Below are positions 3,014-32,769 of a stretch of DNA of 64,000 bases, one piece after another; position 1 is the stretch's first letter; the number at the start of each line of letters is the position of its first letter. The notes beneath the pieces are model-generated. The model saw only the letters and a list, made by a program, of their open reading frames with translations. It ran no database searches and had not been told where the DNA came from. Made by a program: the position numbers and the translations under genes. The DNA is from a virus (taxonomy: Duplodnaviria > Caudoviricetes): positions 8,412-72,411 of IMG/VR virus record IMGVR_UViG_3300037601_000024; one strand, written 5' to 3'.

Positions 3014-3481
3014 ATGATCCATGTGATTCGCCAAAAGCAAATCATTACACCGAATCGGTTGATGGAATTGATCGTGTTTGAAGACAAAGACGAACAATTA
3101 TTGGCGGCATACATGAAAGTTGGCCTGGCCAGACAACCGGTTAAGCTCCTGATGGGGAAAGACTATCGCGACTTCAAACGAGAGGATCGCGCCTTAGCTA
3201 ACTGGAAGAAACGAGCCATATGGTTGCCTGGTAAAAAGATCAAAATCGAATCTACTTTAGCTGCAATTACAGCAGGTTATGATAATGACGACGAAAGTCT
3301 CGATCAGATGGCTGCTGAGTTTTCTGTCAAAGCGATCAAGGGATTAGCGTTCGTCCGGAAACAGGTTGAGACGCGTCCTCTCGCCGCCGCGAAAGCGGAA
3401 GTAGCGAGAGCCAAATATTTGGAAGTTAAAGAAGAACGAGAGCAATACTATGACGGCGTAGAAGGGTCTGGCCTGTTTTAG
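3014..3481 (+). CDS. Hypothetical protein with C-terminal ER..Y......GxF tag
   Basis: GGAG RBS before ATG 3014; ends EREQYYDGVEGSGLF*. Confidence 0.75.
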   Translation: MIHVIRQKQIITPNRLMELIVFEDKDEQLLAAYMKVGLARQPVKLLMGKDYRDFKREDRALANWKKRAIWLPGKKIKIESTLAAITAGYDNDDESLDQMAAEFSVKAIKGLAFVRKQVETRPLAAAKAEVARAKYLEVKEEREQYYDGVEGSGLF

Positions 3482-3625
3482 AATATTCACGAAAATCTAT
3501 GTTATGTGGCAAACTATCGATCGCGGTAATGGTTTATTTACTTTCCGCGACCGATTGTATATCAGTGTTGACATTCAATCCAATTCCGGATTGATGTAAA
3601 CAAGTTAGCACAAGGAGGGCGTCGC

Positions 3626-4057
3626 ATGCCACGTGGTGTCGCAGGAAGACCACAGCAATCTATCAAGACGGGTGAAACATTCGCGCTCGCGGAGTGGTTC
3701 AACAAGAACGTTGATTTTCTTACTGAACTGACGAACGAAGAACTCGCAGAACAGCTCGGCTATACACGGCCGAATATCATCAGCATGTGGCGCACGGGAC
3801 GCACCCGCATTCCGCTCGATCGGCTGACGAAGCTCTCAGAACTTTTGAAGGTGGATCTTTCCTTCCTTCTGCCGCTATGGGTGGAACAATACGGCGGTGC
3901 TGAAGCCTACACAGGTGTCATGAAGATACTCCAATCATCGGTCTCAGAAAGCGAGGCTAAATTGGTTGCAGCGGCACGTGAGCACACAAAGGGACGCGAC
4001 TTCAAATTAAAGGCTGGTGCTGCCAAGCAGCTTGCCGACCTAATTACGCTGAGCTAA
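3626..4057 (+). CDS. XRE/Cro-C1-type HTH transcriptional regulator (candidate repressor)
   Basis: LTNEELAEQLGYTRPNIISMWRTGRTRIPLDRL HTH; AGGAGG RBS. Confidence 0.88.
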   Translation: MPRGVAGRPQQSIKTGETFALAEWFNKNVDFLTELTNEELAEQLGYTRPNIISMWRTGRTRIPLDRLTKLSELLKVDLSFLLPLWVEQYGGAEAYTGVMKILQSSVSESEAKLVAAAREHTKGRDFKLKAGAAKQLADLITLS

Positions 4058-4130
4058 TTGTAAGTCCCACTTGATAATCTCCGGTTGTCGTGCTTAATTG
4101 TAAGCACACGGTGACAATTCGGAGGCAAGT

Positions 4131-6464
4131 ATGACTAAGAGACAATTCTCAGCCGAACAGGCAACCCTCGCAATCGAGAAAACCGCAAAGCTGTTGGCGC
4201 AAGAGAGTGTCAGTGTAACCACACGTGGCGCTCGCGCTTTCATCGAATGGCACCCATCCGGTGACATCAAGCGGATCAACCTACCAATGGTGCCTCGCGA
4301 CGCTGACCAAGAGTTTTTGGACGCGCTGCAAGGCTTTTTGGATCATGAGGTAGGTCACGCTCTCAACACCGAGCCGCTGAAGGGTCGAGCGCTCGAAGAT
4401 TCCCACATTAAACGCCTTGGTGTGCATCCCCAGGTTATTCGTTCGATGACGAATATCATCGAAGATGTGCGCATTGAAGACGCTATGGAAGAGCAATTCC
4501 GTGGCTGTAAGCGCAACCTCGAAGCGGTTCGCAAGTTCTTCGTCGAGCGTATGCGGCGGCCGACGCTGGATAGCATCGACCCCTCCCCTGCCGGCGACGA
4601 TGAGCGTCGCGCATATATTCTCCCAATCTTCTTCCGAGCACGCGGCGGTCAGACCGCTTGTGAGCACTTCATGGATGACATGGAATTGTGGAAGTACGTC
4701 GAACCCTACGACAAATTATTTCCAGACCTGTCGGAGCGTCTTGCCGCTCTAGCGAGCACCGAAGACGCCGCAAACTTGGCGGCAGAGATCGTCGAGCGGA
4801 CGTGCGAAACCACCCCGCCGAAAGACGATGAAGCTGAGCCTGAAGATCAGCAGCAAGACGGCGAAAGCGGCGATGACCAGACTGGTGACGAACAGGGCGA
4901 AGAACGTGAGTCCGACCAGTCGGGGGACCAAGAAACAGAGGCAGATAACAATGATGATGAAGGGGGACAGGATGACGATCCCGAGCAGAACGAGGATGAA
5001 GGCTCATCCGATGGGGACCAGCCTGGCGATGACGACGAGGATGATGAGGGACAGAGCGGTGACGACGGTGACACTGACGACTCCGAAGCCGAACCTGAAC
5101 CATCTGACGACGGCGGAGATGACGGAGATAGTGGCGAAGATCAGGGGGATGATGAAGAGCAAGACGACGCCAATTCTGACGCTTCCGACGGAGACGATGA
5201 AGATGCCAGCGACAACTCTGAATCTGGCGACTCAGACGATGACGCCGGGGAGAATTCCGACAGCGCGAACGATGATAATGAGAGCGAGACAGATGGGGAA
5301 GACGACGGCTCTGAGGCAGATGATAATGACAGCGAGACGGATGGATCAGAAGACACGTCTGACGGCGCCGAAAACGCTGAGAACCAAGACCTAGACGGCG
5401 CCGACGATACTGAAGTCGATAGCAGCGAGGATCAGTCTGGCGATATCGAAGAAGTCGAGAAAATGATTATCGGCGTCGACTATGACAAGATCGAAGACTT
5501 CGACAACTGCGCCGCAGATGAGTTTGAGCGCCTGGTTGGCGATATGGACACCAGCGACCCGTATCACATCTTCTCTCGGGACCATGACTTAATCGAGCCT
5601 GCACAAGCTTACGAGGACGCTCCCGTAAAGTATTGCGAAGACCGTGTTGAGAAAACGACTGGCGTTCTTCGAAAGGAATTACAGCGCCTAATTGCTGCAC
5701 GGTCCCTCTCTCATATGGTGCCAGGCAAGCGATCGGGCCGCATTCATCCTGCGTCCCTGCACCGCCTTCGTGTCGGGGACGACCGTGTCTTTGCCAGGAA
5801 ACATGAGGTTGTGACCAAAGACACGGCCGTGTCGCTCGTGGTCGATTGCTCCGGTTCGATGCACGGCGCCAAAATCCAAGTCGCGATGGAGTCCGCATGG
5901 GCGTTCTCGGACACGCTCAGCCGATTGAACGTCGATAACGAAGTTCTCGGCTTCACGACTAACCACCCGTATTATGGAAACAGTAGAGCTAAATCTTACG
6001 ACCCCGTTGAGATCGAGCGCTATTGCCGGACGCTTGGAGTTTCATCGCATCGCGTCCGACAGGTTCCGCTCTACGTTCCCATCTTCAAAGCATTCGACGA
6101 GAACTTCGGGATCGAGCAGAAGCGCCGCATGGCCTCCTATCCTGAAAAAGGTCTGCAAGGCGCGAACGTGGACGGCGAGTCCGTTCGGATTGCTGCGCAC
6201 CGTTTGATGCAGCGCCGTGCGCAACGTCGCGTGATGATCGTCTTCTCTGACGGTATGCCAGCCAGCGATGTCGCCGGCGAATTGCTCGATGCCGATCTCA
6301 GAAAGACGGTCAAAGAGCTGGAAGCCGCGAAGATCGAAACGATCGGCATCGGTATCCAGACCAAATCGGTGAAGCAATACTACCCGAAGAGCTTTGTGAT
6401 CAAGAACTCCGAAGAGCTTGCGGGGACCACTCTTCGCGAGCTGAAGGCAATTCTCACAAACTAA
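4131..6464 (+). CDS. CobT-like VWA protein (N-terminal HExxH domain, long acidic linker, C-terminal VWA)
   Basis: HEVGH and NIIEDVRIE at the N-terminus; about 215-aa D/E/G/S-rich linker; MIDAS DCSGS...T...SDG. Confidence 0.85.
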   Translation: MTKRQFSAEQATLAIEKTAKLLAQESVSVTTRGARAFIEWHPSGDIKRINLPMVPRDADQEFLDALQGFLDHEVGHALNTEPLKGRALEDSHIKRLGVHPQVIRSMTNIIEDVRIEDAMEEQFRGCKRNLEAVRKFFVERMRRPTLDSIDPSPAGDDERRAYILPIFFRARGGQTACEHFMDDMELWKYVEPYDKLFPDLSERLAALASTEDAANLAAEIVERTCETTPPKDDEAEPEDQQQDGESGDDQTGDEQGEERESDQSGDQETEADNNDDEGGQDDDPEQNEDEGSSDGDQPGDDDEDDEGQSGDDGDTDDSEAEPEPSDDGGDDGDSGEDQGDDEEQDDANSDASDGDDEDASDNSESGDSDDDAGENSDSANDDNESETDGEDDGSEADDNDSETDGSEDTSDGAENAENQDLDGADDTEVDSSEDQSGDIEEVEKMIIGVDYDKIEDFDNCAADEFERLVGDMDTSDPYHIFSRDHDLIEPAQAYEDAPVKYCEDRVEKTTGVLRKELQRLIAARSLSHMVPGKRSGRIHPASLHRLRVGDDRVFARKHEVVTKDTAVSLVVDCSGSMHGAKIQVAMESAWAFSDTLSRLNVDNEVLGFTTNHPYYGNSRAKSYDPVEIERYCRTLGVSSHRVRQVPLYVPIFKAFDENFGIEQKRRMASYPEKGLQGANVDGESVRIAAHRLMQRRAQRRVMIVFSDGMPASDVAGELLDADLRKTVKELEAAKIETIGIGIQTKSVKQYYPKSFVIKNSEELAGTTLRELKAILTN

Positions 6465-6559: not shown

Positions 6560-7732
6560 ATGAGTTCTAACATCACAACACCGGATCAAGGCGTGCTGGT
6601 TCACGGTTTCGACGTCTACGTCCATTCTGTGCCGCGATATCTCGAAGACACCGACGTCACATTGGCGGAATATCAGGAAGCATACGGTTCCGACACGCCT
6701 TTGTTTTCGGAGCGCTTCAAAGCGGCGAAGGCCAAGCGCGAGGATGATCTGAAATCAGATATGACGGCAAAGGTTCACACCATGCCAGGCGCAGCTTCCA
6801 AGCAACCATTCGCCAAGCTGTTTGATCTTGGAAATGCCAAAGCAGCGAAGAACGCTCGCGGCAAAGACATCATGTGTTCAGTCGTCGCACCGCCGACCAA
6901 TTACGAAGGGTGGGTTCCAGATGTGGATCCCAATTACGTCTATCATATCGACAACCTGAAAGCGGTTATGATGGCCGCTGAGCTTGGTATGACCATGCTG
7001 CTCTGGGGAATGCACGGTACGGGTAAAACAACGCTCGTCGAGCAATTCTGCGCACGCACAGGGCGTCCGTGGATTCGGGTGCAGCACACCGTCTCCACAG
7101 AAGAGTCGCACATTCTGGGACAGTACGTGGTCAAAGACGGCGCAACGGTCTTTGAGCTTGGTCCCCTTGCGATCGCGATGCGTGATGGTCTGGTCTACAT
7201 GGCCGACGAATATGACTTTGCGCTACCGTCTGTGACATCGGTCTATCAGCCGGTTCTCGAAGGTAAGCCGCTGGTGATCAAAGAAGCTCCGCCAGAGCTG
7301 CGGATCATCAAACCACACCCGAACTTCCGGTTCTTCGCAACCGGTAACACGAACGGCGCCGGAGATGAGACTGGTCTTTATTCCGGTACTCAGATCATGA
7401 ACGCCGCGAACTATTCGCGCTTCGGTATCACCATCGAAGTGACGTACATGCCGGCCGCTCAAGAGGTCGCAGTGGTCGCGGGTCAGGCGAAGATCCACAA
7501 GGATGACGCCGACCGCCTGGTGAAAGTCGCTAATGAAGTCCGTCGAGGCTTTGAGCGCGGTGACATGTCCGCGACGATCTCGCCTCGTGAACTCATCAAT
7601 GCAGGGATGCTTGCACGTGTCATGGGCGTCGAACCTGACCTCACTAAGGGTTTGGAGCTTGCGTACTGCAACCGCCTGGACTCGACCGACAAGAAGGCGG
7701 TGCTCGACTTCGCGCAACGCCACTTCGGTTAA
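6560..7732 (+). CDS. CobS-like / MoxR-type AAA+ ATPase
   Basis: Walker A GMHGTGKT, Walker B YMADEYD, ATGNTNG, SRF, SPRELI; follows the VWA gene. Confidence 0.9.
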   Translation: MSSNITTPDQGVLVHGFDVYVHSVPRYLEDTDVTLAEYQEAYGSDTPLFSERFKAAKAKREDDLKSDMTAKVHTMPGAASKQPFAKLFDLGNAKAAKNARGKDIMCSVVAPPTNYEGWVPDVDPNYVYHIDNLKAVMMAAELGMTMLLWGMHGTGKTTLVEQFCARTGRPWIRVQHTVSTEESHILGQYVVKDGATVFELGPLAIAMRDGLVYMADEYDFALPSVTSVYQPVLEGKPLVIKEAPPELRIIKPHPNFRFFATGNTNGAGDETGLYSGTQIMNAANYSRFGITIEVTYMPAAQEVAVVAGQAKIHKDDADRLVKVANEVRRGFERGDMSATISPRELINAGMLARVMGVEPDLTKGLELAYCNRLDSTDKKAVLDFAQRHFG

Positions 7733-7832: not shown

Positions 7833-8417
7833 ATGATCAAGATGGGGTGCTTTGGTTCAGTGGTCGCGTTCTCGCCAAAAACGAAGACCTGCCAGGATTG
7901 TCCGGTGAACAAGCAATGCGCAGCCGAAGTGTTCAGTAAAGAGGAAACCACCTTGCAGGCTATCGAACGAAAAGAGACTGAGCGCGACACAGAAGACGCG
8001 ACCCTTTTCAGCAAGAAACACCACAAGATCGAAGACCTTCCGAATGCCGCTTACCACAAGGTGAAGCGATTTTTCGCCACCAGGCGCCGGTACTTCACCG
8101 CGAAAGCGACAGGTAAGCCGATTGGACGCGCTGCTAAAGATTACGAGGCGATGATGAAGAACGGAATCGACTTCACGATGATGCGGATGCGCCTCAACCC
8201 GTTCAAGGAAGGCGGACACTATCCGCACATGCGCAAGATCGTCGGCATCATTTTCGATCTCGAATATTTCAAAACCAAAGACGTCGCCGAAGAGCTGAAG
8301 AAGCAAGGCTACAATTCACACAAATCGACAAGCTCAACGCTGGCCAGCCGAGGTATCAAAGTCTTGGAAATGGCCGGCGTAATTAAGAACGATGGAGGCA
8401 CATATTGTCTGTCATAA
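7833..8417 (+). CDS. Hypothetical protein, N-terminal Cys cluster and possible C-terminal winged helix
   Basis: GCFG...CQDC...C; basic C-terminal region. Confidence 0.7.
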   Translation: MIKMGCFGSVVAFSPKTKTCQDCPVNKQCAAEVFSKEETTLQAIERKETERDTEDATLFSKKHHKIEDLPNAAYHKVKRFFATRRRYFTAKATGKPIGRAAKDYEAMMKNGIDFTMMRMRLNPFKEGGHYPHMRKIVGIIFDLEYFKTKDVAEELKKQGYNSHKSTSSTLASRGIKVLEMAGVIKNDGGTYCLS

Positions 8418-11400
8418 TGACCATGCTGGGAGTTCGATCTCACTTTTCACTCGGTGAGAGCACTCTCAAACCCGAAGACATCAAGCGTATCGCCAAAGAG
8501 GCAGAGCAATCGAAGGTTGTCATCTGTGACACGATGACGATCAACGCCTTGATTGAGACCTCGAAGCTCGCCGACGACACGTTTGATCCGCGCTTTGGGG
8601 TCGCCTTGCGTGTGGTCGATGATATCACCATACGCGATAAGAAGACGCGCCAGAGCATCTATTTCCCCAAAGTGTACCCTCGCAACTGGGAAGCCGTTCA
8701 AGCGCTCTTCCGCGCTGTCTCTGAGGCGCACAGAGGTGATAACTTCTACATGGTGCCGCGCATGTCCTGGGAGATGTTCTTCCGGATGCTCGAACAGGGT
8801 GACTTCACTGTCACGTCCGGTGACTTCTATGGCGTTCTGGAGCGCAAAGATGCGGTCGCAAAGTGTGAAGCCATTCGGAGTAGCGCTCGCGACTTCTACG
8901 TGGAGCTGACGCCGGTTCCGACTGGATATCACGACCGCGTCAATCAGATCGCCGCGTTTCTGGTGAAGCACGGTGACTTTAAGCCGCTCCTGTCATGGCC
9001 AACCATGTACGACAAAGATGGCCACCAATCGTTCGTGATCAATCGCGGCATCCAGAAGCGTTCGAGCTACGCCAAAGAGGTTTTCCTAAACCAGCCGGTA
9101 CACGAAGCGTACCACGCACCCTCCCCTTCTGAGCTGGTCGCTTACGTCAAAAGCGCCGCTGAACGGTTGGAGAAGATCGAGCCAGGACACAAAGCCGTAT
9201 GGAAGCAAGCAATCCTGAACCAACACGAGTTCTTCGACGCCTTGGACTATAAGTGGGAGAAGCAACCAATCGCGCTTCCAAACCTCGCTGAAGATCCCGA
9301 CGAGCGCGTCAAAGAGCTTTGCGTGGCAGGTCTGAAGGAACGCATGAAGGCGCACGTGTTCGGTGAGCACATCTCTGCGGCCGATTACAAGTCAAAGTAC
9401 CTTCCGCGCCTGAAGTACGAACTTGGCATCCTGAAAGACATGGGTTTTGCCGAATACTTCCTGCTCGTGGATAACCTCGTGCGCTGGTGTAAGTCGAACG
9501 GCATTCTGGTTGGACCGGGTCGTGGATCGGTCGGCGGTTCGCTGGTCGCTTATCTGATGGGGATCACAGACGTTGACCCTATCCGTTTTGGATTGATCTT
9601 TGAGCGCTTCATCAACCCTTCCCGTAATGACCTTCCTGATATCGACTTGGACTTCATGTCCACGCGGCGCCAGGAAGTGATCGACTATCTCGTCGAAGAG
9701 TTCGGCGAAGAAAAGGTTGCCGGTATCTCTAACTACGGTGTGCTTGGCTCTGCGTCTGCGATCAAGGATGTTGGCCGTGTGTATGCGCTTGATGCCGCCA
9801 AGCTGACAGTGTCGAAGTACATCCCGAAGGTTCACGGACAGCCAGTCGATCTCGCGACGGCGGAGAAGGAAGTCGCTGAAATCTCCACGCTCGCCGATGA
9901 CCACCCTCAAATGTGGAAACACGCGGTCGGTCTCCAAGGCACAATGCGAAGCTACGGAAAACACGCCGCCGGCACGATCGTGGCAGGCTGCAACATCTCA
10001 GACCTGGCAATTGTCGAAAACCGATCCGGTGAGCGCACCATCAATTGGGACATGCGCGTTGCTGAAAGTATGGGACTGGTGAAGCTGGATATCCTTGGCC
10101 TCTCCACGCTCGATACGATCGCCAGAGCGGTCGACAACATCAAGAAACGGCACTCGAAGGACGTAGACATTCTGTCTATCCCGCTCGATGACGAAAAGAC
10201 GCTGAAGGCATTCTCAGAAGGTAGAACGATCGGCGTGTTCCAGTTCGAGGGTGGTGCTGCTCGCCGCATCCTCAAAGACATGTCTAAGGTCAACACCGTT
10301 GTCTTCAATGATATTGTCGCAGCGAACGCGCTCAACCGTCCCGGTCCTATCGACGCCGGTCTGGTTGAAAAGTACGTGGACGCCAAGAACGAGGAAGTCG
10401 AGAACGAGCTGCCTCACCCGAACATGGCTGACGCGTTGGACGAAACATACAACGTCATCGTCTATCAGGAACAGGTAATGCAGGTGGCTGTGGACTTGTG
10501 CGGCTTCTCACTCTCCGAAGCTGACACGCTCCGGAAAGCTATGGGTAAGAAAGACAAGAAACTCATGGCGAAGCTGAAGGACCAGTTCATCGACGGGGCG
10601 GAAAGCCACTCCGGAATGGATCGTGACCTCGCCGAAGACTTGTTCGATCAGATCGAAGTGTTCGCCGGATACGCGTTCAACAAATCTCACGCCGCAGAAT
10701 ACTCGCTGATCTCCTACCAGTGCATGTGGCTGAAGGTCCACTATCCGGTCGAGTTCTACGCCGCAGCGCTGTCCACGGTGAAGGAAGACAAGCTGAAGCC
10801 GATCTTGAAGGATGCGCTTGAAGCGGGGATCGAAGTTCTGCCGCCGGATATCAATCTCTCAGAGCGCGATTTTGTGATCGCGAACGATAAGACACTCATA
10901 ACACCGCTTTCACGCGTCAAGCGCGCTGCTGGACGCGCTCCAGAGGTAATCATGAGCATTCGCGCAGAAGGAAAGATTCTGAGCACTGACGACCTCAAGA
11001 AACGTCTTACAGAGAAGAAGCTGGGACGTTGGTGTAACAAGTCGGTCATCGCGAACCTAGACGCCGTTGGTGCGTTCGCACACGTCGAGCCGGGTCAGAA
11101 ACCGCCGCTCGATGACAGCCGGATCAAAGACCAACTCACTCTGATGCCTGGTCTGGTCACCCGCGTCCTGCGCGTCGATGAAAAGATCCCGCAGGACAAG
11201 CACACGAAGGCGCGCATCATCGGTTTGGTGAAGAATTACTCAGAAGCCGACGAACATGCCGTCCACTGCTCACCAGGTATCGGCAAAAGAGCTGCATTTA
11301 TGGCAGTCGCCGATTGTCCCAATCATTCTGAAGAGAATGAGAAGATGTTCGCCAAAGGTCGATCATTCGATTACTGCCGAGAAGCTTTGGCCGGCGCCGG

Positions 11401-11743
11401 TCTGTCGGTTCACGATGGCTACTGGACCGGACTGCTGAAGCGGATCAAAGACGACCGCATCATTTCGCCGGATGAAATCAAGACTTACTCTCCCTTCCTT
11501 GATCAGGAAGTCGAGCTGCTGAAGCCGCAATTGATCATCACACTTGGCTCAAATGCGATGCGCCATTTCATTCCGGAGTTGAAGGGTGGGATAATGGATC
11601 ACGTTGGGTCCACCCACTTCCTTCCGAAGCTGGATGCCACCGTTCTGATCGGTTTCAATCCTGGCATGATCTACCATGACCGGGACAAAATGAACGACCT
11701 TGAAGAGGTCTTCAAGAAAGCCGCAGAAATTATCGGTGCTTAA
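8417..11743 (+). CDS. dnaE: DNA polymerase III alpha-like (family C) with fused C-terminal uracil-DNA-glycosylase-like domain
   Basis: PHP N-terminus (RSHFSLGES), GPGRGSVGGSLVAY, PDIDLDF, KLDILGL, YQEQVM, YAFNKSH; C-terminal KPQLIITLG...GFNPG. Confidence 0.95.
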   Translation: MTMLGVRSHFSLGESTLKPEDIKRIAKEAEQSKVVICDTMTINALIETSKLADDTFDPRFGVALRVVDDITIRDKKTRQSIYFPKVYPRNWEAVQALFRAVSEAHRGDNFYMVPRMSWEMFFRMLEQGDFTVTSGDFYGVLERKDAVAKCEAIRSSARDFYVELTPVPTGYHDRVNQIAAFLVKHGDFKPLLSWPTMYDKDGHQSFVINRGIQKRSSYAKEVFLNQPVHEAYHAPSPSELVAYVKSAAERLEKIEPGHKAVWKQAILNQHEFFDALDYKWEKQPIALPNLAEDPDERVKELCVAGLKERMKAHVFGEHISAADYKSKYLPRLKYELGILKDMGFAEYFLLVDNLVRWCKSNGILVGPGRGSVGGSLVAYLMGITDVDPIRFGLIFERFINPSRNDLPDIDLDFMSTRRQEVIDYLVEEFGEEKVAGISNYGVLGSASAIKDVGRVYALDAAKLTVSKYIPKVHGQPVDLATAEKEVAEISTLADDHPQMWKHAVGLQGTMRSYGKHAAGTIVAGCNISDLAIVENRSGERTINWDMRVAESMGLVKLDILGLSTLDTIARAVDNIKKRHSKDVDILSIPLDDEKTLKAFSEGRTIGVFQFEGGAARRILKDMSKVNTVVFNDIVAANALNRPGPIDAGLVEKYVDAKNEEVENELPHPNMADALDETYNVIVYQEQVMQVAVDLCGFSLSEADTLRKAMGKKDKKLMAKLKDQFIDGAESHSGMDRDLAEDLFDQIEVFAGYAFNKSHAAEYSLISYQCMWLKVHYPVEFYAAALSTVKEDKLKPILKDALEAGIEVLPPDINLSERDFVIANDKTLITPLSRVKRAAGRAPEVIMSIRAEGKILSTDDLKKRLTEKKLGRWCNKSVIANLDAVGAFAHVEPGQKPPLDDSRIKDQLTLMPGLVTRVLRVDEKIPQDKHTKARIIGLVKNYSEADEHAVHCSPGIGKRAAFMAVADCPNHSEENEKMFAKGRSFDYCREALAGAGLSVHDGYWTGLLKRIKDDRIISPDEIKTYSPFLDQEVELLKPQLIITLGSNAMRHFIPELKGGIMDHVGSTHFLPKLDATVLIGFNPGMIYHDRDKMNDLEEVFKKAAEIIGA

Positions 11744-11827
11744 TTGTAAGTCATTATTGACAATATTTCTTGCGCTGGTATTGTGCAACCTCATTCAAAA
11801 CGAGTGAACAAAACAGAGGCTAAAACC

Positions 11828-12397
11828 ATGCAACAAACCACCATCCTTGGCTTTCTTGGAACAGAGGAATTCGACGCCATTCCCGGCTCGAACACGTTCC
11901 GAATTGGCCATCGCTATGATCAGATTTTGCGGAAAGGCGACGAAGTCGTAATTCGCGATGATGATCTGCACCAGCTTCGCGGCACAGCGGTCGTCTCAGA
12001 CGTCTGGACCGGGAGCTTGCGTAACATGCTGCAAGAGCACGGCGATGAAAATCACCACCTGACGCGCGAACACTCTGAAGTTCGCCGCGCGGACCTGAAG
12101 TGCTTCCTCGAAGACGTCTACCGCGAGCTTGGCTACGACGTGGACGACACGACGCCATTCACCGTCATCTACTTCGAAGAAGCCGAGGAAGACTCTTCTG
12201 GCGCCGAAGGTGAGATCGAAACCGAAGAAGAGCCTGCGACATCAGAAGATGACGGCGCCGGCAAGGTGGAAGCGACTCCAACCCCCGCTGCGTCTGAGAC
12301 TGAGCCGACCACTCAGGAGCCGCAGCCTGGCACCGTGTTCTCTGGCGCTCAGACCAGCGAGACTTCTACCGAAGCAGAGACAGAGGCTGCGGCCTAA
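11828..12397 (+). CDS. Hypothetical protein, possible ASCH/PUA-like fold with acidic tail
   Basis: FRIG...GDEVV...G.A.V...H..NH...L..VY...TVIY pattern; E/T/P-rich C-terminus. Confidence 0.6.
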   Translation: MQQTTILGFLGTEEFDAIPGSNTFRIGHRYDQILRKGDEVVIRDDDLHQLRGTAVVSDVWTGSLRNMLQEHGDENHHLTREHSEVRRADLKCFLEDVYRELGYDVDDTTPFTVIYFEEAEEDSSGAEGEIETEEEPATSEDDGAGKVEATPTPAASETEPTTQEPQPGTVFSGAQTSETSTEAETEAAA

Positions 12398-12909
12398 TGT
12401 CAGACACCATCTTAAAGGTTGGACCCTACAAGGTGGATCAATTCGTGTCGGCCGAGCAACTTGCGGCCGACACAAACCTCAACGGCGCAGATTTGAATGA
12501 CAGCTTCCTGAACCAATCCGGTTTGATGGCGTTCTATTCAACTCTGCTCGCGAAAGCAGGCTACCAGACCGGCGAGTTCAAATTGAAGCGCGATGTCCAA
12601 ATGGCCATCGTCTCCAAAGAGTTTCGGGAAAATCCACCTTCCGACAAGAAACTCACCGAATCGGCACTGTCTGAATTGGTTTTGACGGATAAGCGCGTTC
12701 AAGCGGTGAAAGCCGCCTACCTGCGCGCCGAAGAAGTTGAGGCTGTTATCAAGGGTGCTGTCGAAGCACTCCGCCATCGCAAGGATATGGTCGTCCAACT
12801 CGGCGCCGCATCTCGCGAGGAAGCTAAAGGCGCTGTCCGCATGAAAATGACGTCGGACACTTCTGATCGGAGCTCGGCTCTGAAAGCGAAGCTCGCAAAG
12901 GCGAAATAG
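12397..12909 (+). CDS. Helical protein, probable UvsY-like recombination mediator
   Basis: KLTESALSELV...ALRHRKDMVVQLG pattern; next to SSB and RecA (inferred). Confidence 0.55.
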   Translation: MSDTILKVGPYKVDQFVSAEQLAADTNLNGADLNDSFLNQSGLMAFYSTLLAKAGYQTGEFKLKRDVQMAIVSKEFRENPPSDKKLTESALSELVLTDKRVQAVKAAYLRAEEVEAVIKGAVEALRHRKDMVVQLGAASREEAKGAVRMKMTSDTSDRSSALKAKLAKAK

Positions 12910-13051
12910 GTTTCCCACGAGACCTGAAAAGTTTCGCACAGTAATGTGCGGATAACGGAACTCCGGTTCCACAACCCCGTCACAAAGTCAGTCATTCATG
13001 ACTGATAAGTGGCGAGACTGAAAGCAATGCAAGCAGAAAAGGAAAGTAAGC

Positions 13052-13939
13052 ATGGCAGGATTGAGAGACCGCATCGCGGCAAAACGTCAGGCAATCGCTG
13101 ACAAGAGCGCTGGCTTCGAACGTTCGTTCAAATGGTCAGTTGGGAAAACGTATTTCCGCCTCCTCCCAGGTAAGGCCGAAGCGGAAGAATTCTTCGAAGA
13201 AATCGGGGTCCACTGGATCAAGTCCAAAGGCAAAGTTGTCACCTCTGTTGGTGACCGCGAAATTTGCTTCGGCGAACCGTGTCCGATCCGCGAGGGTATC
13301 GAAAGCGTCATGGCTCACGCACGTGACATCGGCGACGACGATATGCTCAAGGAAGCAAAAGACATGCTCGCCAAACCGCGCTTCTTCGCGAACGGTATCA
13401 TCATCAAGGCTCCCGGCGAGTTTGAAAAAGACAAGCCGGAACTGCTCGAATTCTCCGAGCGGACTTGGGACCAAATCCTTTCGCAAATGGAAGACATGAT
13501 CGAAGAACTGGACGAAGGCGCGGACCTCACCAAAGAAGGTCCATTCGCTCTTGACGGCGGCGTTGTCTTCGTTCTGGAAAAATCGGGTTCGGGTCTGGAG
13601 ACGCGTTACAACGTCTATACCCACTCGAAGAAAGCGAAAGCTCCCGCAGGTGTGCTCGAAGCAGCAGTCGATCTCGCTGGCTATAAACGCTCGCAGTTCG
13701 ATGAACGGGGCCGCAAGGCACTCGCTGCTCTTGGTGCCATGATCGGTGAAGACCTGTCAGACTCCGTCGCCGACGCTCTGACAGCACCGGCTCAGACCAA
13801 GCAACTCGCCGCGCCAGAATCCACCGACGATGACTTTGTCGACGAAGACGACGTGATTGAAGGCGAAGTCGCCGAAGAGACTCCCGCAGAGGAAGAACTC
13901 TCCGACGATGACATTCTGGCGGACCTCGACGACCTGTAA
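13052..13939 (+). CDS. Phage single-stranded DNA-binding protein (gp32-like) with acidic tail
   Basis: YFRLLP...HW...C...CPI; GSGLETRY; acidic C-terminus DDDILADLDDL. Confidence 0.75.
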   Translation: MAGLRDRIAAKRQAIADKSAGFERSFKWSVGKTYFRLLPGKAEAEEFFEEIGVHWIKSKGKVVTSVGDREICFGEPCPIREGIESVMAHARDIGDDDMLKEAKDMLAKPRFFANGIIIKAPGEFEKDKPELLEFSERTWDQILSQMEDMIEELDEGADLTKEGPFALDGGVVFVLEKSGSGLETRYNVYTHSKKAKAPAGVLEAAVDLAGYKRSQFDERGRKALAALGAMIGEDLSDSVADALTAPAQTKQLAAPESTDDDFVDEDDVIEGEVAEETPAEEELSDDDILADLDDL

Positions 13940-15938: not shown

Positions 15939-16229
15939 GTGTCCGTCGGATTTATCGAAGAAGCTGTGAAGGAAGAGATGGTCCCCGTGACTATCTCTTT
16001 TCACTCTGGCACCAAAGAGATTGCGAAGTTTGGCTATCGCAACGCGGTCGCGTTGTTCGCCAACCAAGAACTGTACGAAGCAGGCATAGTAAGTTTGCCA
16101 AGATACTATCCATCCGGAACGCGTCTATTTCAGCTCCAACATTCAACGATTGAACGGCTCGAAGTCGCAACGAACGACCTCAAAAAATTCATAGATGCAG
16201 TGAAGGATAAAATCGCCAATGAAGACTGA
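15939..16229 (+). CDS. Hypothetical protein
   Basis: GTG start after GGAGG, directly after recA. Confidence 0.55.
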   Translation: MSVGFIEEAVKEEMVPVTISFHSGTKEIAKFGYRNAVALFANQELYEAGIVSLPRYYPSGTRLFQLQHSTIERLEVATNDLKKFIDAVKDKIANED

Positions 16230-18283: not shown

Positions 18284-18492
18284 ACTCAACAGATAGAGAA
18301 GAATATTTCTATGTGCTGGTTGCCAGAGCGGCACGAGCGCTACTGACCGAGAAGAATACCAACGGTATGGCGTTTCAGCTCGGCGGTGTTCGAATAAACA
18401 TTCAGGACGCTGACACTCAAATTGCTGTCGGCAAAGATAGTCCGTCGATTCAGCACCTATCAGAACGAGCGAGACGACTTTATGAGATATAG
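18280..18492 (+). CDS. Hypothetical protein
   Basis: ATGA overlap with sbcD. Confidence 0.55.
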   Translation: MNSTDREEYFYVLVARAARALLTEKNTNGMAFQLGGVRINIQDADTQIAVGKDSPSIQHLSERARRLYEI

Positions 18493-18994: not shown

Positions 18995-21009
18995 AAATAA
19001 CAAACGTAACAATCGAAAACTTCCTGGGGATTGGTACAGCAAAAATCAGTCTGCAAGATAAGGGACTGGTATTAGTCCAGGGACAAAACTTAGACGATCC
19101 GTCGGCGGACTCCAACGGCTCCGGCAAGTCGTCTATGATCGATGCTGTGTTCTGGGGTCTCTACGGTAAGACCGCGCGTGGCCTTGGTGGTGACGATGTG
19201 ATCAACCGAGTGATCGGCAAGCAGTGCGTCGTAACGATTGAGCTGGAAGACGGTACACAGACAGCGAAGATTACTCGCTGGAGAAAAGCCAAAGGTTTCC
19301 ATAAGCGATCCGGCGTTGTTATCGAGATCAACGGTTCCGATTGCTCAGGCGGCACAGACGCACTTACACAAGCCGAGATCGACAAGGTTGTAGGTTGCAG
19401 CGAGCAAGTCTTCGCCGCCGCTGTCTACGCAGGACAGGAAGCGATGCCAGACATCCCTTCCCTCACCGATCGCCAGTTGAAGTCACTGATCGAGGAAGCT
19501 GCCGGCATTGACCTGATCGAGGAAGCTTACGTCGTTGCGCGGGAGGTTGTTCGCGATGCACAGGAAGCGCAAGATAAGTTCTCCGACGCCTTAGACTTAG
19601 TTCGTTCATCGGTTGAACGCGTCGAGGGTCAGATAGCTACCGTCGAAGATGACATCGAAGGGTGGGAAAAGACACGCGAGTCTCGTGTGAAACAAGCTAC
19701 GGATGAAGCTGCGGAACTGAAAACACGCGCCACCGACGTAAAGAAAGAAATCGCGGACTTCGACGAAAAGGGAATCAACGATCAAATCAAAAAGATCGAC
19801 GACGAGATATCGGCTTTGGATGAGCAAATGCAGGAGATCGATAAAGAGATCGCCGGCGTTTCCGAAGAGAACGAGAAGGCTCGCAAACTTGGTGAAGACG
19901 TTTTAAACGCACGTCACTTATTCGACGACGCGACCAAAACCGCAAAACGGATCGCCGAGACATTCAAGAAACAGAAGAGCAAGTTTGAAAACGTCGAGTC
20001 TCAAGTCGGCGAACCTTGTGGTGAATGCGGCAAGCTCACGACTGAAGAAGACTTGGCTGATGTGAAAGCGAATCTGAAAGAGACTTTGCGCGAGCTAAAG
20101 GAAACGTATGAAGGCGCTCGCGATGACGCCGCTGATCTAAAAGCTAAATTGGAAGAGTGTGAGACCGCGCGCGATGAATTCGAAGCGCAACGCACCGACA
20201 TTAGCGCACAGCAAGCGCAGCAGCGCGAGTTAACTTCTAAACAGCGCGATCTTACCTCTGACAAAAACAAGCTCTCAGCGACGCTCTCTGAGCTTCCCAG
20301 ACTGAAGGATCGATATTCCAATTTGAAGGAGCGTTTCGATGCGAAGCGTCAGGACATCAAGAAGCTCAAGGAAGAGAAAAACCCGCACGGAAAATCCCTC
20401 GATCGTTACAAGACGGAACTGGTCGAAGCTCAAAAGGCGGTCGAAGAGAAAGAAGTTGAATACGCCAATGCGGCGGAACATCTGGTGGTCGCCAAAGCGG
20501 CAGCGCAGGTCTTTGGACCTAAAGGCGTCCGAGCGCACATTCTTGATACCGTCACACCTTTCCTCAACGATCGCACGGCTCACTACCTAAGCACGTTGTC
20601 AGACGGCTCTCTCGAAGCGATCTGGTCAACGCTGACCGAAGGACGCGACGGCGAGCTGAAAGAAAAGTTCACAATCGGCGTGGAGAAGTATGGAACAGGT
20701 ACGTTCGCATCACTTTCCGGCGGTGAGAAGCGGAAGGTTAGACTAGCGACTACCCTCGCCTTGCAGGACTTGGTTGCGTCACGTGCGACCAAGCCAATCA
20801 ATCTATGGATCGGTGACGAAATCGATACCGCGTTGGATCCCGCAGGACTGGAGCGTCTTATGACGCTACTGGAAATGAAAGCGCGTGAAAAAGGTACGGT
20901 TCTAATCGTGTCTCACCACGACCTGAAGGATTGGGTGCGCGACACGGTTGTCGTCACGATGGAAGACAAAGCAGCAAGAGTGGAGGGAGTTCTATGTCCA
21001 GTCCCCTAA
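18991..21009 (+). CDS. sbcC: SbcC/Rad50-like ATPase
   Basis: Walker A NGSGKSS, coiled coil with CGEC zinc hook, signature LSGGE, Walker B IGDE, VSHH. Confidence 0.93.
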   Translation: MKITNVTIENFLGIGTAKISLQDKGLVLVQGQNLDDPSADSNGSGKSSMIDAVFWGLYGKTARGLGGDDVINRVIGKQCVVTIELEDGTQTAKITRWRKAKGFHKRSGVVIEINGSDCSGGTDALTQAEIDKVVGCSEQVFAAAVYAGQEAMPDIPSLTDRQLKSLIEEAAGIDLIEEAYVVAREVVRDAQEAQDKFSDALDLVRSSVERVEGQIATVEDDIEGWEKTRESRVKQATDEAAELKTRATDVKKEIADFDEKGINDQIKKIDDEISALDEQMQEIDKEIAGVSEENEKARKLGEDVLNARHLFDDATKTAKRIAETFKKQKSKFENVESQVGEPCGECGKLTTEEDLADVKANLKETLRELKETYEGARDDAADLKAKLEECETARDEFEAQRTDISAQQAQQRELTSKQRDLTSDKNKLSATLSELPRLKDRYSNLKERFDAKRQDIKKLKEEKNPHGKSLDRYKTELVEAQKAVEEKEVEYANAAEHLVVAKAAAQVFGPKGVRAHILDTVTPFLNDRTAHYLSTLSDGSLEAIWSTLTEGRDGELKEKFTIGVEKYGTGTFASLSGGEKRKVRLATTLALQDLVASRATKPINLWIGDEIDTALDPAGLERLMTLLEMKAREKGTVLIVSHHDLKDWVRDTVVVTMEDKAARVEGVLCPVP

Positions 21010-21335
21010 AAGGAAAATACATCTGCTTCACTGGTAAGCTGGATGACTTCACACGAGCCGATCTCGAGGAAATGGCTGAAGAGTACGGCTTCACGTTCAT
21101 GAATAGCGTGACCAAGTCGACCGACATTTTGGTGAAGGGTGAAAAGCCAGGAAAGACCAAGGTCGATAAAGCGTTTAATCAGGGTGTGCGTATCATCAGC
21201 GCCGAGGATTTTCTTCATCTACTGATGGCCAACGATGATCTAGGTCTTCCAGAGCCGAAGGTGAAGGAAACCAAGACACAAAAGAAAGAGCGCCTTGGTT
21301 ACTACGAGCAACACGAGCAAGCCGGAATCTTTTAA
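20994..21335 (+). CDS. Stand-alone BRCT-domain protein with C-terminal tag
   Basis: LKGKYICFTGKL...SVTKSTDILVKGEKPGKTKVDKA...GVRIIS; ends ERLGYYEQHEQAGIF*. Confidence 0.85.
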   Translation: MSSPLKGKYICFTGKLDDFTRADLEEMAEEYGFTFMNSVTKSTDILVKGEKPGKTKVDKAFNQGVRIISAEDFLHLLMANDDLGLPEPKVKETKTQKKERLGYYEQHEQAGIF

Positions 21336-21350
21336 CAGTCATTGTTGACT

Positions 21351-22046
21351 ATGAAGACAATCGAATGGAACGCCGGAGTGAAGATACTGAGTCCGGTCAA
21401 CGCGCACCACTTATCAGGGATAGACGAAATGGAAGGATATCACGGCAGCACTGGTCGATCTACGGATTTAGGTATCTTTGACGAGGTAGCTGAAGCGCAC
21501 GCGACCGGCTTCAAAGACGAGACTGCCGAAGAGCCGCACGCGTTCTCCTACCAGGCCGACCTTGTCGAACTGGACAAGCTGTTTGGCGAATTGCCTGGTG
21601 AACATGCCGATGTGTTCGTTTCCGCGATCCTCTGGGACGAAGAGCAAGACGCACGAACCGGCGAGTCTATTCGGATCGCTCCCGGTGAGTTGCTGGTCCC
21701 CTATCGCCTGCGCCTGGGTAATAAGGGTCAGCTTCAGTTCCTTGTGTGGTGGAGCCGCGAAGAAGGACATCGTGCACCGTTGGTCGTGAACCGATCAACT
21801 TTGGAAGACCTTCTGCCAGCGACCTATGCCAAGCTGGAAGAGAAATTCCTGCAACACAATAGCCGACTGATCTACCTGCTCGAACGAGAGAATAAGGCGG
21901 TGATCGGATCACGAAATCGCGTGATCGAAAGTCTCAATACGGCGATCAAGACGCGCTCCGAAGTGGACCTGCTCAAAGAGATGCAGCGCCGCGAAGAAGA
22001 GCGCACTCAGTCTTACGCAGACGATGACCGCGCGGGGATGTTCTGA
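21351..22046 (+). CDS. Hypothetical protein with C-terminal tag (start may be 21429)
   Basis: Ends ERTQSYADDDRAGMF*. Confidence 0.7.
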   Translation: MKTIEWNAGVKILSPVNAHHLSGIDEMEGYHGSTGRSTDLGIFDEVAEAHATGFKDETAEEPHAFSYQADLVELDKLFGELPGEHADVFVSAILWDEEQDARTGESIRIAPGELLVPYRLRLGNKGQLQFLVWWSREEGHRAPLVVNRSTLEDLLPATYAKLEEKFLQHNSRLIYLLERENKAVIGSRNRVIESLNTAIKTRSEVDLLKEMQRREEERTQSYADDDRAGMF

Positions 22047-22297
22047 TGGACCCCGATTACGCTGAAATGTTCTATCCCGAATACATCGACCTGGGGCAAG
22101 GCAGAAGACTTCCTGCCGGCGCCATGACGTTCGACGCCAGGAAGAAAATGCTGCTCGATTTAATAAACGGCGGCGGACTGTCTAAAGACGCACTAGAGGC
22201 TCTGCTCGAACAGACGAAGAATATCGAGATCGTCGAAGATGAGAAAGACGTTCGCCAGCGACACATCGACAACGATGAGATGGCGGGGATGTTCTGA
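22046..22297 (+). CDS. Hypothetical protein with C-terminal tag
   Basis: TGATG coupling; ends VRQRHIDNDEMAGMF*. Confidence 0.7.
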   Translation: MDPDYAEMFYPEYIDLGQGRRLPAGAMTFDARKKMLLDLINGGGLSKDALEALLEQTKNIEIVEDEKDVRQRHIDNDEMAGMF

Positions 22298-22638
22298 TGG
22301 CCGCACTCTCAAAAGGCCAATTGGACGTACTTCTTAGTAATCCAGGCAATCGCGATTTTTACGACAAGCTCTTCGAAGACATGAAAGAGGCTTCGACTCT
22401 TTCTGATCTTCTGACGAAGCCGATCAAGCACGAACCCGCCGTGTTTTGGGTCGATGAAGCGCACGAATTTGAGAACGAGCGTGAGTACACCTGGCCATCC
22501 TTTCAAGATCGCTGGCATATCGACACGTTTCGCAGAGAAGAAATAAAGCGCTCATACGCAGCCGAGCTTGAAGAAAGCCGCAAGGTCAAAGAACGCACAG
22601 ATTTTTACGAAAACCAAGAAGACGCAGGAGCATTCTAA
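22297..22638 (+). CDS. Hypothetical protein with C-terminal tag
   Basis: TGATG coupling; ends ERTDFYENQEDAGAF*. Confidence 0.7.
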   Translation: MAALSKGQLDVLLSNPGNRDFYDKLFEDMKEASTLSDLLTKPIKHEPAVFWVDEAHEFENEREYTWPSFQDRWHIDTFRREEIKRSYAAELEESRKVKERTDFYENQEDAGAF

Positions 22639-29388: not shown

Positions 29389-30045
29389 ATGTCGCCTATT
29401 AACGTCGAAGCCATGCAAGATGACTGGCTTAAACAACGTATCGACAAGCTCGAACGGATAATGAAGGGGTATGTTGAGCAGGCTTTGGACAACGCCACTG
29501 TAGTGGCGCTAATCAATCAACAGGCGACCCCAACAGCAGATGAAATTGAAAACAGTCATGATCTGGCGCTCGACCTATGGAGTCAAGACGAACGGATATC
29601 TATAGATGTTCAGCTTGAGATTGATGAAAAAGAACAAAAACACGAATGGGAAGTTATGCTATTTCTTCCCTCGCTGCTCGAGGGCGACAGTGTCGTCGCG
29701 ATGTATCATTCCTCTAACTATATCGCACCAGGCGAAATCCCCATCGACGAAATTCCTTTCATTCAAGAATGGCTTCTTCGAGAGTGTGAGCGCGTTGCAT
29801 GGCATATCGAGCGGAATGAGGAAGAGAACAGAGCGAACTATCGCCACGATCGAGACAAGAAGTGGGATGAGCGCCAAGCGAGAGAAGAGCGCGAGCGTAT
29901 GGAGCTGGAACGTCAACTGGCCGCTGAAGCAGCTCGCCTAGAAGAGGAACGTCTTCAGAAAGAAGCCGCTGAGCGCCGCGCGGCCGAAGATGCCTGGATC
30001 GATCAGGAAGTCCGCCTGGCTGATCCATTGGTGGGTGCTTTTTAA
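29389..30045 (+). CDS. Hypothetical coiled-coil protein with degenerate C-terminal tag
   Basis: E/R-rich helix; ends LADPLVGAF*. Confidence 0.7.
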   Translation: MSPINVEAMQDDWLKQRIDKLERIMKGYVEQALDNATVVALINQQATPTADEIENSHDLALDLWSQDERISIDVQLEIDEKEQKHEWEVMLFLPSLLEGDSVVAMYHSSNYIAPGEIPIDEIPFIQEWLLRECERVAWHIERNEEENRANYRHDRDKKWDERQAREERERMELERQLAAEAARLEEERLQKEAAERRAAEDAWIDQEVRLADPLVGAF

Positions 30046-31321: not shown

Positions 31322-31342
31322 TCTGGGAGGATGGACGAAAGG

Positions 31343-31372
31343 AAGAGCGGTGCTTATACGGCACCGCTCTTT
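31343..31372 (+). terminator. Intrinsic terminator
   Basis: AAGAGCGGTGC / GCACCGCTCTT. Confidence 0.65.
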
Positions 31373-31549
31373 GCGCGTCTCGTAAGCGCACAGAAGCGCG
31401 AGCACTATAACCGGACACATCACACCTAATTCACAAAACGCGCGCTGAGCACCGCTTAAAATCGCTCCAGCGAAGCCAACGAAACCCGATGGATTGTAAT
31501 TCAATCTAAGGTTACAAAGAGATCATAGCAGTTGAGGAATAGATTATTT

Positions 31550-31819
31550 ATGCGAGAACTGAATATTAGAGGCTACAAGACCACGACGGAACCGATCGAA
31601 GAGGGAGATGTCGCGGTTGTTATCCGGCGAGATGGTGAAGTTGAAGTCGCGATTAAGTCGGCGGACGAAAACGGCCATAACCCTTCTGCCAATACAGAAG
31701 ACCTCCTGTCGGCGTATGCGCTCGTGACCTTGCTCGCCAACCCTGAGTTGATGGACGCCGCGCGTGCGGACGCCTTCAGCAAAGTTCAGGACGCGATGAA
31801 GTTGAGGGTTGTGAACTGA
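31550..31819 (+). CDS. Hypothetical protein
   Basis: GAGG RBS; 89 aa. Confidence 0.55.
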   Translation: MRELNIRGYKTTTEPIEEGDVAVVIRRDGEVEVAIKSADENGHNPSANTEDLLSAYALVTLLANPELMDAARADAFSKVQDAMKLRVVN

Positions 31820-31881
31820 GCCGCTTGCGTCTCAGTTCTATGTGTGTAATTGTAAGTCATTGCTGATTATGCGGAGGCGAC

Positions 31882-32769
31882 ATGACTGGTTTCCCGGTTT
31901 ATAGCGAGATCGATCCCAGCCAGTGCCTCTACCAAGGCATCCCGGCAATCGCCTTAGATGGTCAAAAGTCTACCGACTGTTGGGATCCCTGGTTGAGCGA
32001 CACAGCGCGAGCGTATGACAGTTACGCCGTTCAAACTGATCGCGCGCATAGACTGACCGATTGGTTGAATATCATCGGTGACGACAAGTGGCATGACCCC
32101 GACTTTCTTTCTCCGGAACAAATATTCCACTTGAACGCCATTCAATCTCAAATTGATTGGAATGAAAACCAATTGAAGATGCGGCGATCAGGTGAAGGGC
32201 GCAGCTATAAATCGCAGATCGCAACATTGGCCACTTCCGAAGATGACACAGTCATCACGGCAATCGATTGTCCGAAAGATTACCAACGAGACATTACCGA
32301 CCAGGGAGGCTTGGTCGCCGAGAACACCGCCACCGCGAAAGTTATTTACATCGGCGGTTTCGAATACATTTGTCGCACACAGATGAACTTTGGCAGGGAT
32401 TCCGGTACAAAGACGGTCTGGTGGGACAACGTAGGAGTGTGTGAGCCGGACGGCACCAGTCAGATGATGGAGGACATCGGCCAATACAACGTAATGTCGT
32501 CGCGCCTGAAGCGTGAGGTGACCCCTCCAGACGGCACCGGAAGTTGGGTCGACTTCGCTCGCGACCACCTACTCCCAATCCACATGGAAAAGTACGGTTT
32601 CATGCAGCCTATCGATCACCACATGGATTGGGTCGAAGAGCATATGATTGCATCGCCGCCTCTCAATTCGAAGTGGATTACCTGCGCAGCTACGCGCCTC
32701 AAGAACGCAGAGGCCAATGCTGAGCGCCTGGCATTCTATCAAGATGACGCTATGACCGCGATGTTTTAG
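31882..32769 (+). CDS. Hypothetical protein with C-terminal tag
   Basis: GGAGG RBS after operator; ends ERLAFYQDDAMTAMF*. Confidence 0.75.
   Translation: MTGFPVYSEIDPSQCLYQGIPAIALDGQKSTDCWDPWLSDTARAYDSYAVQTDRAHRLTDWLNIIGDDKWHDPDFLSPEQIFHLNAIQSQIDWNENQLKMRRSGEGRSYKSQIATLATSEDDTVITAIDCPKDYQRDITDQGGLVAENTATAKVIYIGGFEYICRTQMNFGRDSGTKTVWWDNVGVCEPDGTSQMMEDIGQYNVMSSRLKREVTPPDGTGSWVDFARDHLLPIHMEKYGFMQPIDHHMDWVEEHMIASPPLNSKWITCAATRLKNAEANAERLAFYQDDAMTAMF

Follow-up and report, generated by a model that had tools for sequence, protein, structure and literature searches.

A conserved C-terminal tail shared by unrelated accessory proteins for replication and repair in a large clade of tailed phages

Replisomes are organised by docking peptides that several proteins share, such as the clamp motifs, the tip of the bacterial single-stranded DNA-binding protein (SSB) and the tails of bacteriophage T7. 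In phage T7, gp2.5 (the SSB) and gp4 (the helicase-primase) carry acidic C-terminal tails whose terminal Phe docks on T7 DNA polymerase. The tip of Escherichia coli SSB binds many partners, and in the clamp systems (QL[SD]LF, the PIP box and the C-termini that bind phage T4 gp45) unrelated clients reach one site of a hub through one short, often C-terminal hydrophobic motif. In eukaryotes and archaea the ribosomal stalk P proteins end in ..GFGLFD, which is read by several partners via a hydrophobic pocket. In principle, a further member of the group of replisome docking peptides is the tail analysed here, which is carried by seven proteins encoded in a 64-kb stretch of DNA (hereafter the window) of the 72,411-base virus record IMGVR_UViG_3300037601_000024, an element called as a prophage. 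This tail is real, is selected as a peptide, stands at the C-terminus, is kept within protein families and is met again on families without mutual relationship in a large clade of phages. In its sequence and in its many volatile clients it differs from the clamp motifs, the SSB tip and the phage T7 tails.

An earlier note on this DNA had described five full and two degenerate copies of the tail at the ends of seven open reading frames (ORFs), and all seven C-termini were found to be exact translations, each followed by a stop codon (Table 1). The pattern ER...Y......[GA].F was matched five times in the six-frame translation of the 72,411-base genome, all five matches lying directly before the stop of long + strand ORFs, whereas 200 base shuffles gave on average 0.00 matches with the stop and 0.02 without it, none of the shuffles having a match before a stop. 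The note had also held that the bodies are unrelated and that one is a BRCT protein. Both points were borne out, since blastp of the bodies without their last 16 residues found no significant pairwise similarity (best E value 0.006, over 53 residues) and Pfam recognised BRCT in T2 with an E value of 5.8e-16. When the 45-nt stretches coding for the tails were compared pairwise, third codon positions were identical at 2-8 of 15, the codons differed, and all three stop codons were in use. Because third positions are thus random, the conserved object is the peptide, which is under selection, and not a DNA repeat or a regulatory site.

Table 1. Tagged genes (T1 to T7) and other genes of the window, with positions counted from its first nucleotide
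Feature	Position	Strand	Tail (position)	Remark
T1, 171-aa orphan	2966-3481	+	EREQYYDGVEGSGLF (3434-3478)	directly 3' of primase
T2, BRCT-domain protein	20931-21335	+	ERLGYYEQHEQAGIF (21288-21332)	directly 3' of Rad50
T3, 234-aa orphan	21342-22046	+	ERTQSYADDDRAGMF (21999-22043)	
T4, 83-aa orphan	22046-22297	+	VRQRHIDNDEMAGMF (22250-22294)	degenerate tail
T5, 113-aa orphan	22297-22638	+	ERTDFYENQEDAGAF (22591-22635)	
T6, 218-aa orphan	29389-30045	+	..RLADPLVGAF (29998-30042)	degenerate tail
T7, 295-aa orphan	31882-32769	+	ERLAFYQDDAMTAMF (32722-32766)	four genes upstream of ligase
DnaB-like helicase	570-1886	+		operon preceding T1
Primase	1886-2959	+		T1 directly downstream
CobT-like VWA protein	4131-6464	+		MIDAS DxSGS intact
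CobS-like MoxR AAA+	6560-7732	+		
Mre11	17231-18283	+		operon preceding T2-T5
NUMOD4/HNH endonuclease	18422-18994	+		between Mre11 and Rad50
Rad50	18979-21009	+		T2-T5 downstream
ATP-dependent DNA ligase	35063-36187	+		Pfam DNA_ligase_A_M + DNA_ligase_OB_2 core
Tyrosine integrase	62507-63745	minus		

The form of the tail found in the window has ER at -15/-14, A, S or T at -4 (V in protein T6) and an acidic middle or run before the terminal Phe. The tail of protein T5 resembles that of gp091 of Pseudomonas phage nickie (ERAKQYENSKTDFGGWA), and that of protein T6 (D-P-L-V-G-A-F), which has the form [N/D]-P-x-hydrophobic-G-x-F, is the nearest of the window tails to the consensus of the clade described below. 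T2, whose likely ATG start is at 20994, is the only tagged protein of the window with a known domain. PHROGs gave no match for six of the seven, neither a Pfam nor a PHROG family was matched by T1, which occupies the position of a tagged WGR protein in relatives, and look-ups of T3 and T7 in the ESM Atlas returned no usable match. An ORF at 37901-38365 that ends in GAF (the PNKP phosphatase) was considered as an eighth carrier and rejected, its Pfam HAD_PNKP domain reaching the last residue. The genes of proteins T3 and T4 end with identical codons, GCG GGG ATG TTC TGA, with a TGATG overlap with the next start (22035-22051 and 22286-22302), which suggests that the tail was duplicated locally and that T3, T4 and T5 are translationally coupled.

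Retention of the tail by homologues, whose lack the note had named among its refutations, was observed. The large protein collection contained only two close relatives of the downstream region of the window. Homologues of protein T7 at 59% and 54% identity end in AERLAFYEKDSMAAMF and ERREFYKANQTALF, while the 25 residues upstream of the tail could not be aligned. Homologues of protein T6 retain RLxDPLVG[AS]F, and one metagenomic copy continues for 8 residues further. Searches of a phage collection with the tagged proteins by megablast and tblastn and pattern scans of IMG/VR for T3 and T7 found no relatives, and a scan of IMG/VR and GTDB genomes with the single Rad50 protein gave only distant, irrelevant loci. 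Alignment-based scans of IMG/VR provided 80 loci anchored on Rad50 and 80 more anchored on primase. As relatives were taken those phages and contigs that share the DnaB-primase-CobT/CobS-DnaE-SSB-RecA-Mre11/Rad50 module, namely Rhizobium phage RHEph10, phage nickie, Salmonella phage SSU5 and about 150 IMG/VR contigs.

In these relatives a tail of the general form [Y]..[N/D]-P-x-[F/W/Y]-G-x-[F/W]-COOH was found on more than 40 unrelated protein clusters. At least seven proteins of RHEph10 end in Y-A-x-N-P-N-F-G-R-F, a tail whose Tyr (-10), Gly (-3) and Phe (-1) are spaced as in the window. The tails of nickie (that of gp091, ..DIGGWA and ..GWGAFG, with FGGWA among the ends) have one extra residue after the core, and two proteins of SSU5 end in WATW; in both phages the tagged genes are found where the window also has them, i.e., behind primase and behind Rad50. 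The short cores were nearly exclusive to C-termini (FGRF 5/6, WATW 2/2). Among the 1980 ORFs of the 80 Rad50-anchored loci, [FWY]G.[FW] occurred 195 times, and 54 of these occurrences were exactly C-terminal against 0.86 expected. The tail of the window (ER..Y..AGxF) is thus a derived local variant of a clade-wide aromatic-G-x-F/W-COOH. Of the earlier proposal, then, a selected, C-terminal peptide on unrelated proteins stood, as would be expected of a shared address or docking tag, while its restriction to one phage did not. ER at -15/-14 lies outside the general motif.

When all ORFs were clustered, tagged clusters were tagged throughout (21/22, 18/18, 9/9, 7/7 and 7/7, besides about 40 singletons), and no aromatic-G-x-F/W tail was seen on the core clusters of Rad50 (85 members), Mre11 (83), RuvC (74), RecA (65), SSB (64) and DnaE (47). 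Tagged genes concentrate at two fixed places, one after primase and before ligase and the other around Mre11-Rad50; the first gene 3' of primase was tagged in 57/68 loci, and a gene within three of Rad50 in 59/77. These counts are lower bounds, since genes were called as longest ORFs and some were missed in GC-rich genomes. A profile of the commonest tagged family among those that follow Rad50, run against 1.8 billion proteins, matched 740 representative clusters; in the 150 best matches, which are diverse, the end fits [FWY][GA].[FW] in 137 and a looser form in 148. The motif of the tail by itself has too few bits to stand out from the 2x10^11 residues of the large protein library. Among 139 tails of this family, Tyr stood at -10 or -9 (61 or 42), N or D at -7, Pro at -6 (73), F, Y or W at -4 (137), Gly at -3 (137) and Phe (88) or Trp (51) at -1. 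F and W ends both occur within one phage.

Two genomes and one locus need separate mention. A genome that was first scored as untagged (G001) encodes a WGR protein ending in ..NENWGTW beside the four-cysteine protein described below and the ligase. The only solid tail-less complete genome is that of the IMG/VR contig of loci L044/L045 (G003; 101,852 bases), which has the same core module but neither a WGR gene nor any aromatic-G-x-F/W tail. Several of its proteins end in Tyr (..SESPY, ..FLNNY, ..DLIKY, ..ELEVY), and such ends may be a replaced tag. At an IMG/VR locus (L184:11047-14492), six successive genes after primase are all tagged (..WGMWA, ..WALFG, ..WGMWA, ..WGAW, ..WGTWQ, ..WATW).

The main tagged family after primase is a stand-alone WGR domain, Pfam WGR being found in 38/48 members, gp034 of RHEph10 included. 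A tagged family whose gene immediately precedes Mre11 carries an ExoX-like C domain (ExoX-like_C in 5), and the remaining carriers are mostly orphans. The clients are therefore small, fast-changing modules, several of them typical sensors of DNA breaks or nicks (WGR, BRCT). In an AlphaFold model of a member of the post-Rad50 family (L062:9487-9966, alignment A6; pLDDT 89), an alpha/beta body is followed by a long helix (120-152) and a free tail. No significant match to this model was found among solved structures in Foldseek and VIA searches of the PDB, a search for longer, fused forms of the family found none, and members with an N-terminal extension had no Pfam domain.

Compared with the described systems, the tail shares with those of phage T7 gp2.5 and gp4 that replication proteins of one phage carry it and that the last aromatic residue would be the key contact. 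The combination of an acidic tail and a terminal aromatic is found in the window variant, but the clade-wide tail is not acidic, and in the general motif Gly at -3 is invariant and is preceded by a second aromatic at -4. In phage T7, moreover, two conserved core proteins dock on a known reader, whereas here the carriers are dozens of unrelated, fast-changing accessory proteins. With the bacterial SSB tip (D-D-D-[I/L]-P-F) it has in common the terminal Phe, the free carboxylate, the flexible tail and a setting of replication and repair docking. However, in bacteria one hub carries the tip and many partners have pockets, while here many clients carry the tail; none of 64 gp32-like SSBs of the clade ends in an aromatic-G-x-F/W tail, the acidic run is confined to the window variant, and there is no Pro at -2. 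The beta-clamp motif, QL[SD]LF or QLxLxL, calls for Q followed by L or M, and Q was found at -5 in only one of the seven window tails. Position -4 is A, S, T or V in the window tails versus F, Y or W in the clade, where the clamp motif wants L, and no clamp gene was recognised in the module. A PIP box, Q-x-x-[ILM]-x-x-[FY]-[FY], is not apparent either, the position counts of the post-Rad50 tails having no adjacent aromatic pair and no conserved Q. The stalk P proteins also have an aromatic-G-x-aromatic core near a free C-terminus, but they serve translation factors in an unrelated system that is absent from bacteria, and the resemblance of motif shape is a lead only. In the literature on phages with CobT, CobS and DnaE, on SSU5 and on WGR-primase no description of the tail was found.

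On balance, the tail is probably a portable short linear docking motif that plugs unrelated accessory replication and repair proteins into one conserved partner, because it is short, lies in a disordered region, is kept while its flanks diverge and is convergent on unrelated proteins. A carrier is built of a variable body, a charged helical linker and a free tail of about 10 residues. In the tail, Tyr lies near -10 and N/D-P is frequent at -7/-6; position -4 is either aromatic or small, Gly (or Ala) at -3 hardly ever changes, and Phe or Trp comes last. Most likely, its one or two aromatic side chains would be inserted into a hydrophobic groove of the partner, and rapidly changing accessory proteins could thus be swapped without losing their link to the replication and repair module. 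That the tail binds a protein, that a single common reader serves all carriers and that this reader is phage-encoded are all three presumed. A phage-encoded reader is favoured because the hosts span Alpha- and Gammaproteobacteria and one phage can have F as well as W ends, and also because neither the clamp motif nor the tip of SSB is matched by the tail and DnaE has a clamp-like QLTLMPGL of its own.

The best-supported candidate for the reader, tentative as it is, is the minimal ATP-dependent phage ligase, which would be served in trans by the WGR and BRCT modules. It is put forward because these domains are fused to ligases elsewhere, because primase, the tagged WGR gene, the four-cysteine protein and ligase follow in this order in 43/47 loci, and because the ligase of the window is a bare NT+OB_2 core in which Pfam recognised no DNA-binding domain. 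In the largest cluster of bacterial NT-OB_2 ligases more than two thirds have an annotated WGR domain (review, PMC7470946), and ligases of PHROG and LigA families have BRCT among their domains. The phage clade resembles these bacterial NT-OB_2-WGR fusions (PMC7470946) and the BRCT-bearing NAD-dependent LigA in that the same modules for sensing nicks or ends go together with a ligase core, the gene of the WGR protein lying one or two genes upstream of that of the NT-OB_2 ligase. Unlike there, however, the phage modules are separate polypeptides that end in a shared tail, and the tail may substitute for the covalent link between ligase and module. It is conceivable, if doubtful, that these phages have a modular repair machine in split form, whose parts are connected by the tail. 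Interchangeable sensors (WGR, BRCT, ExoX-like C, the post-Rad50 family) would then use one conserved groove of a minimal enzyme, for which the NT-OB_2 ligase is the most plausible choice and Mre11-Rad50 a possible second one. A universal plug would stand in place of domain fusion, and modules could be exchanged between phages without the interface being evolved anew.

The four-cysteine protein is conserved and about 200 aa long, all four cysteines being invariant, and its gene always lies between the tagged WGR gene and ligase. Examples are L137:12391-12993 with 45 related loci, gp036 of RHEph10, gp107 of nickie, SSU5_043 and 12844-13452 of Stenotrophomonas phage ANB28. No homologue was detected in the window, and a fold search with its model (pLDDT 79) gave no significant match.

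Several observations weigh against the docking motif, and against the ligase as its reader in particular. In the genomes compared, neither the presence or absence nor the identity profile of any core gene tracks the tag status, CobS/CobT included, and the tail-less G003 keeps ligase, CobS/CobT, SSB, RecA, Mre11/Rad50 and RuvC. The ligase as reader offers no obvious account of the hot spot at Mre11/Rad50, and protein T7 is the only tagged protein of the window whose gene is near the ligase gene. The terminal position is not absolute, one residue being added in nickie-type tails and 8 in the one metagenomic homologue of protein T6, so that a strict requirement for the free terminal carboxylate does not hold. 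The counts are also approximate, the calls being longest ORFs and at least one supposedly untagged genome (G001) having proved tagged. None of the hubs that the earlier note had in mind (CobS/CobT, a protease, virion loading, a host protein) gained direct support.

Instead of a docking site, the tail could be a C-terminal degron, whose exposed aromatic end is read by a host protease (Lon, ClpXP, FtsH) or a phage one, so that early accessory proteins are turned over together. C-terminal degrons such as ssrA are well known, and Lon prefers aromatic-rich tags. The strict C-terminal position on unrelated early proteins, the hydrophobic or aromatic last residues and the exposed, unstructured tail after a helix in the AlphaFold model would agree with such a function. 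The near-invariant Gly at -3, the Pro at -6 and the Tyr near -10, however, point to a defined bound conformation and not to general hydrophobicity, the tail is unlike the ClpX motif of LAA type, an additional residue at its end is tolerated, and no protease gene was seen in the module. A degron is accordingly considered unlikely.

Another possibility, with a low probability, is that the tail is a cofactor peptide of Mre11-Rad50, by analogy with the motifs of Nbs1, CtIP/Sae2/Ctp1, Rif2 and TRF2, and that the tagged proteins would be interchangeable third subunits. Most loci have a tagged gene directly after Rad50, often with a stop/start overlap, or just before Mre11, and four tagged genes follow Rad50 in the window. 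Short motifs of unrelated eukaryotic proteins are described as converging on RAD50 (bioRxiv 10.1101/2023.03.25.534200). Nevertheless, the more constant hot spot after primase and before ligase (57/68 loci) would be left unexplained, and both RHEph10 and the window have tagged genes far from Mre11-Rad50. A predicted complex of the tail of protein T3 (45 aa, with a tail alignment), Mre11 and two Rad50 head lobes scored 0.12 against a mark of 0.32; this score was obtained without controls and weighs neither way.

The logic of many clients at one site is typical of SSB and clamp systems, and the window variant has an acidic run before its terminal Phe. The reader could therefore be sought in another hub, i.e., the gp32-like SSB core, the RecA-like recombinase, DnaE (including its UDG-like end), DnaB, the host beta clamp or the partners of host SSB. 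This is improbable as well. The tail is without the Q and L of the clamp motif, while DnaE has its QLTLMPGL internally; the phage SSB ends in a different, acidic-leucine tail; tagged genes do not lie beside the SSB or RecA genes; and tails vary little between phages of very different hosts, with F and W ends mixed within one phage.

Still less probable is capture of the tail by the CobT-like VWA domain at its MIDAS site, or by a CobS/CobT MoxR-VWA motor that would remodel or assemble the clients. CobS/CobT are conserved across the clade, where they have no known role and no CobN partner, and the MIDAS positions (DxSxS, T, D) are conserved in all eight CobT homologues aligned. In the solved CobST structure the VWA domain sits on the AAA+ pore and leaves the MIDAS face free for a partner (bioRxiv 10.64898/2026.10.09.757910). 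However, there is no co-variation, G003 keeping CobS/CobT with an intact DxSxS in spite of its lack of tails; the tagged genes are not adjacent to cobT or cobS; and the carboxylate is the only acidic feature that the general tail conserves. The integrity of the CobT MIDAS was also tried as a discriminator of tagged and untagged genomes and was rejected, as it is intact in all genomes compared.

That there is no functional tag, only chance, recent paralogy or a translated DNA repeat (a terminator or operator) at gene ends, might be suggested by the last four codons shared by T3 and T4, but it is refuted by the counts, with five observed matches against none in shuffles, random third codon positions, unrelated bodies, and a tail that is conserved across the 740 representative clusters of a single family and is carried by more than 40 clusters unrelated to each other.

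The tail is almost invariant on hundreds of protein clusters, and it singles out more than 40 orphan clusters that defy annotation in other ways as members of one presumed interaction network. It thereby offers a way towards the function of accessory genes, so far unexplained, that surround primase, ligase and Mre11-Rad50. It is present in experimentally tractable phages, i.e., the SSU5-like phage-plasmids of Salmonella, E. coli and Klebsiella, Pseudomonas phage nickie and Rhizobium phage RHEph10. If the ligase were indeed the reader, the tail would show a route by which minimal ligases gain nick sensors in trans.

The tagged genes of the window belong to a long early region on the + strand, whose order is DnaB-like helicase, primase, a helix-turn-helix (HTH) protein, CobT-like VWA protein, CobS-like MoxR AAA+, DnaE with a UDG-like C-terminal domain, gp32-like SSB, 5'-3' exonuclease, RecA, Mre11, HNH endonuclease, Rad50, RuvC-like resolvase, ribonucleotide reductase, ThyX, dUTPase, RNase T-like exonuclease, ATP-dependent ligase and PNKP-type phosphatase. 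This module is syntenic with those of RHEph10, nickie, SSU5 and ANB28, and the core proteins are 35-52% identical to theirs. In DnaE (8405-11743, 1112 aa) a UDG-superfamily domain (Pfam UDG, residues 972-1095) replaces the usual OB and tau-binding end, a fusion kept in the same four phages. The domain may be inactive, because the sites that we take to be the family-4 catalytic motifs read ADCPN and FNPG. The internal QLTLMPGL, which resembles a beta-clamp motif, is at residues 910-917.

The gp32-like SSB of the window (13052-13939) ends in ..DDILADLDDL, and the SSBs of the clade (the window and IMG/VR loci L010-L089) share an acidic-leucine tail of their own, e.g., DDILADLDDL, LDELDDLLED and LDKLLADLG, which is a second, distinct C-terminal motif within the same module. 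Between a PhoH-like gene and DnaB, nearly all relatives encode an aromatic-rich protein, of 238 aa in this genome (8198-8914, i.e., window -213 to 503); its N-terminus (..EYLGGFYGSGF) was rejected as a tag, since relatives do not conserve it. Two paralogous small proteins are encoded at 11783-12397 and 16219-16602, and their family was found in 61 related loci, one copy having a long acidic tail. A gene of RHEph10 annotated as an ASCH-domain protein occupies the corresponding place after RecA. The NUMOD4/HNH gene resembles a homing endonuclease and is inserted between Mre11 and Rad50, the relatives having HNH genes elsewhere in the module.

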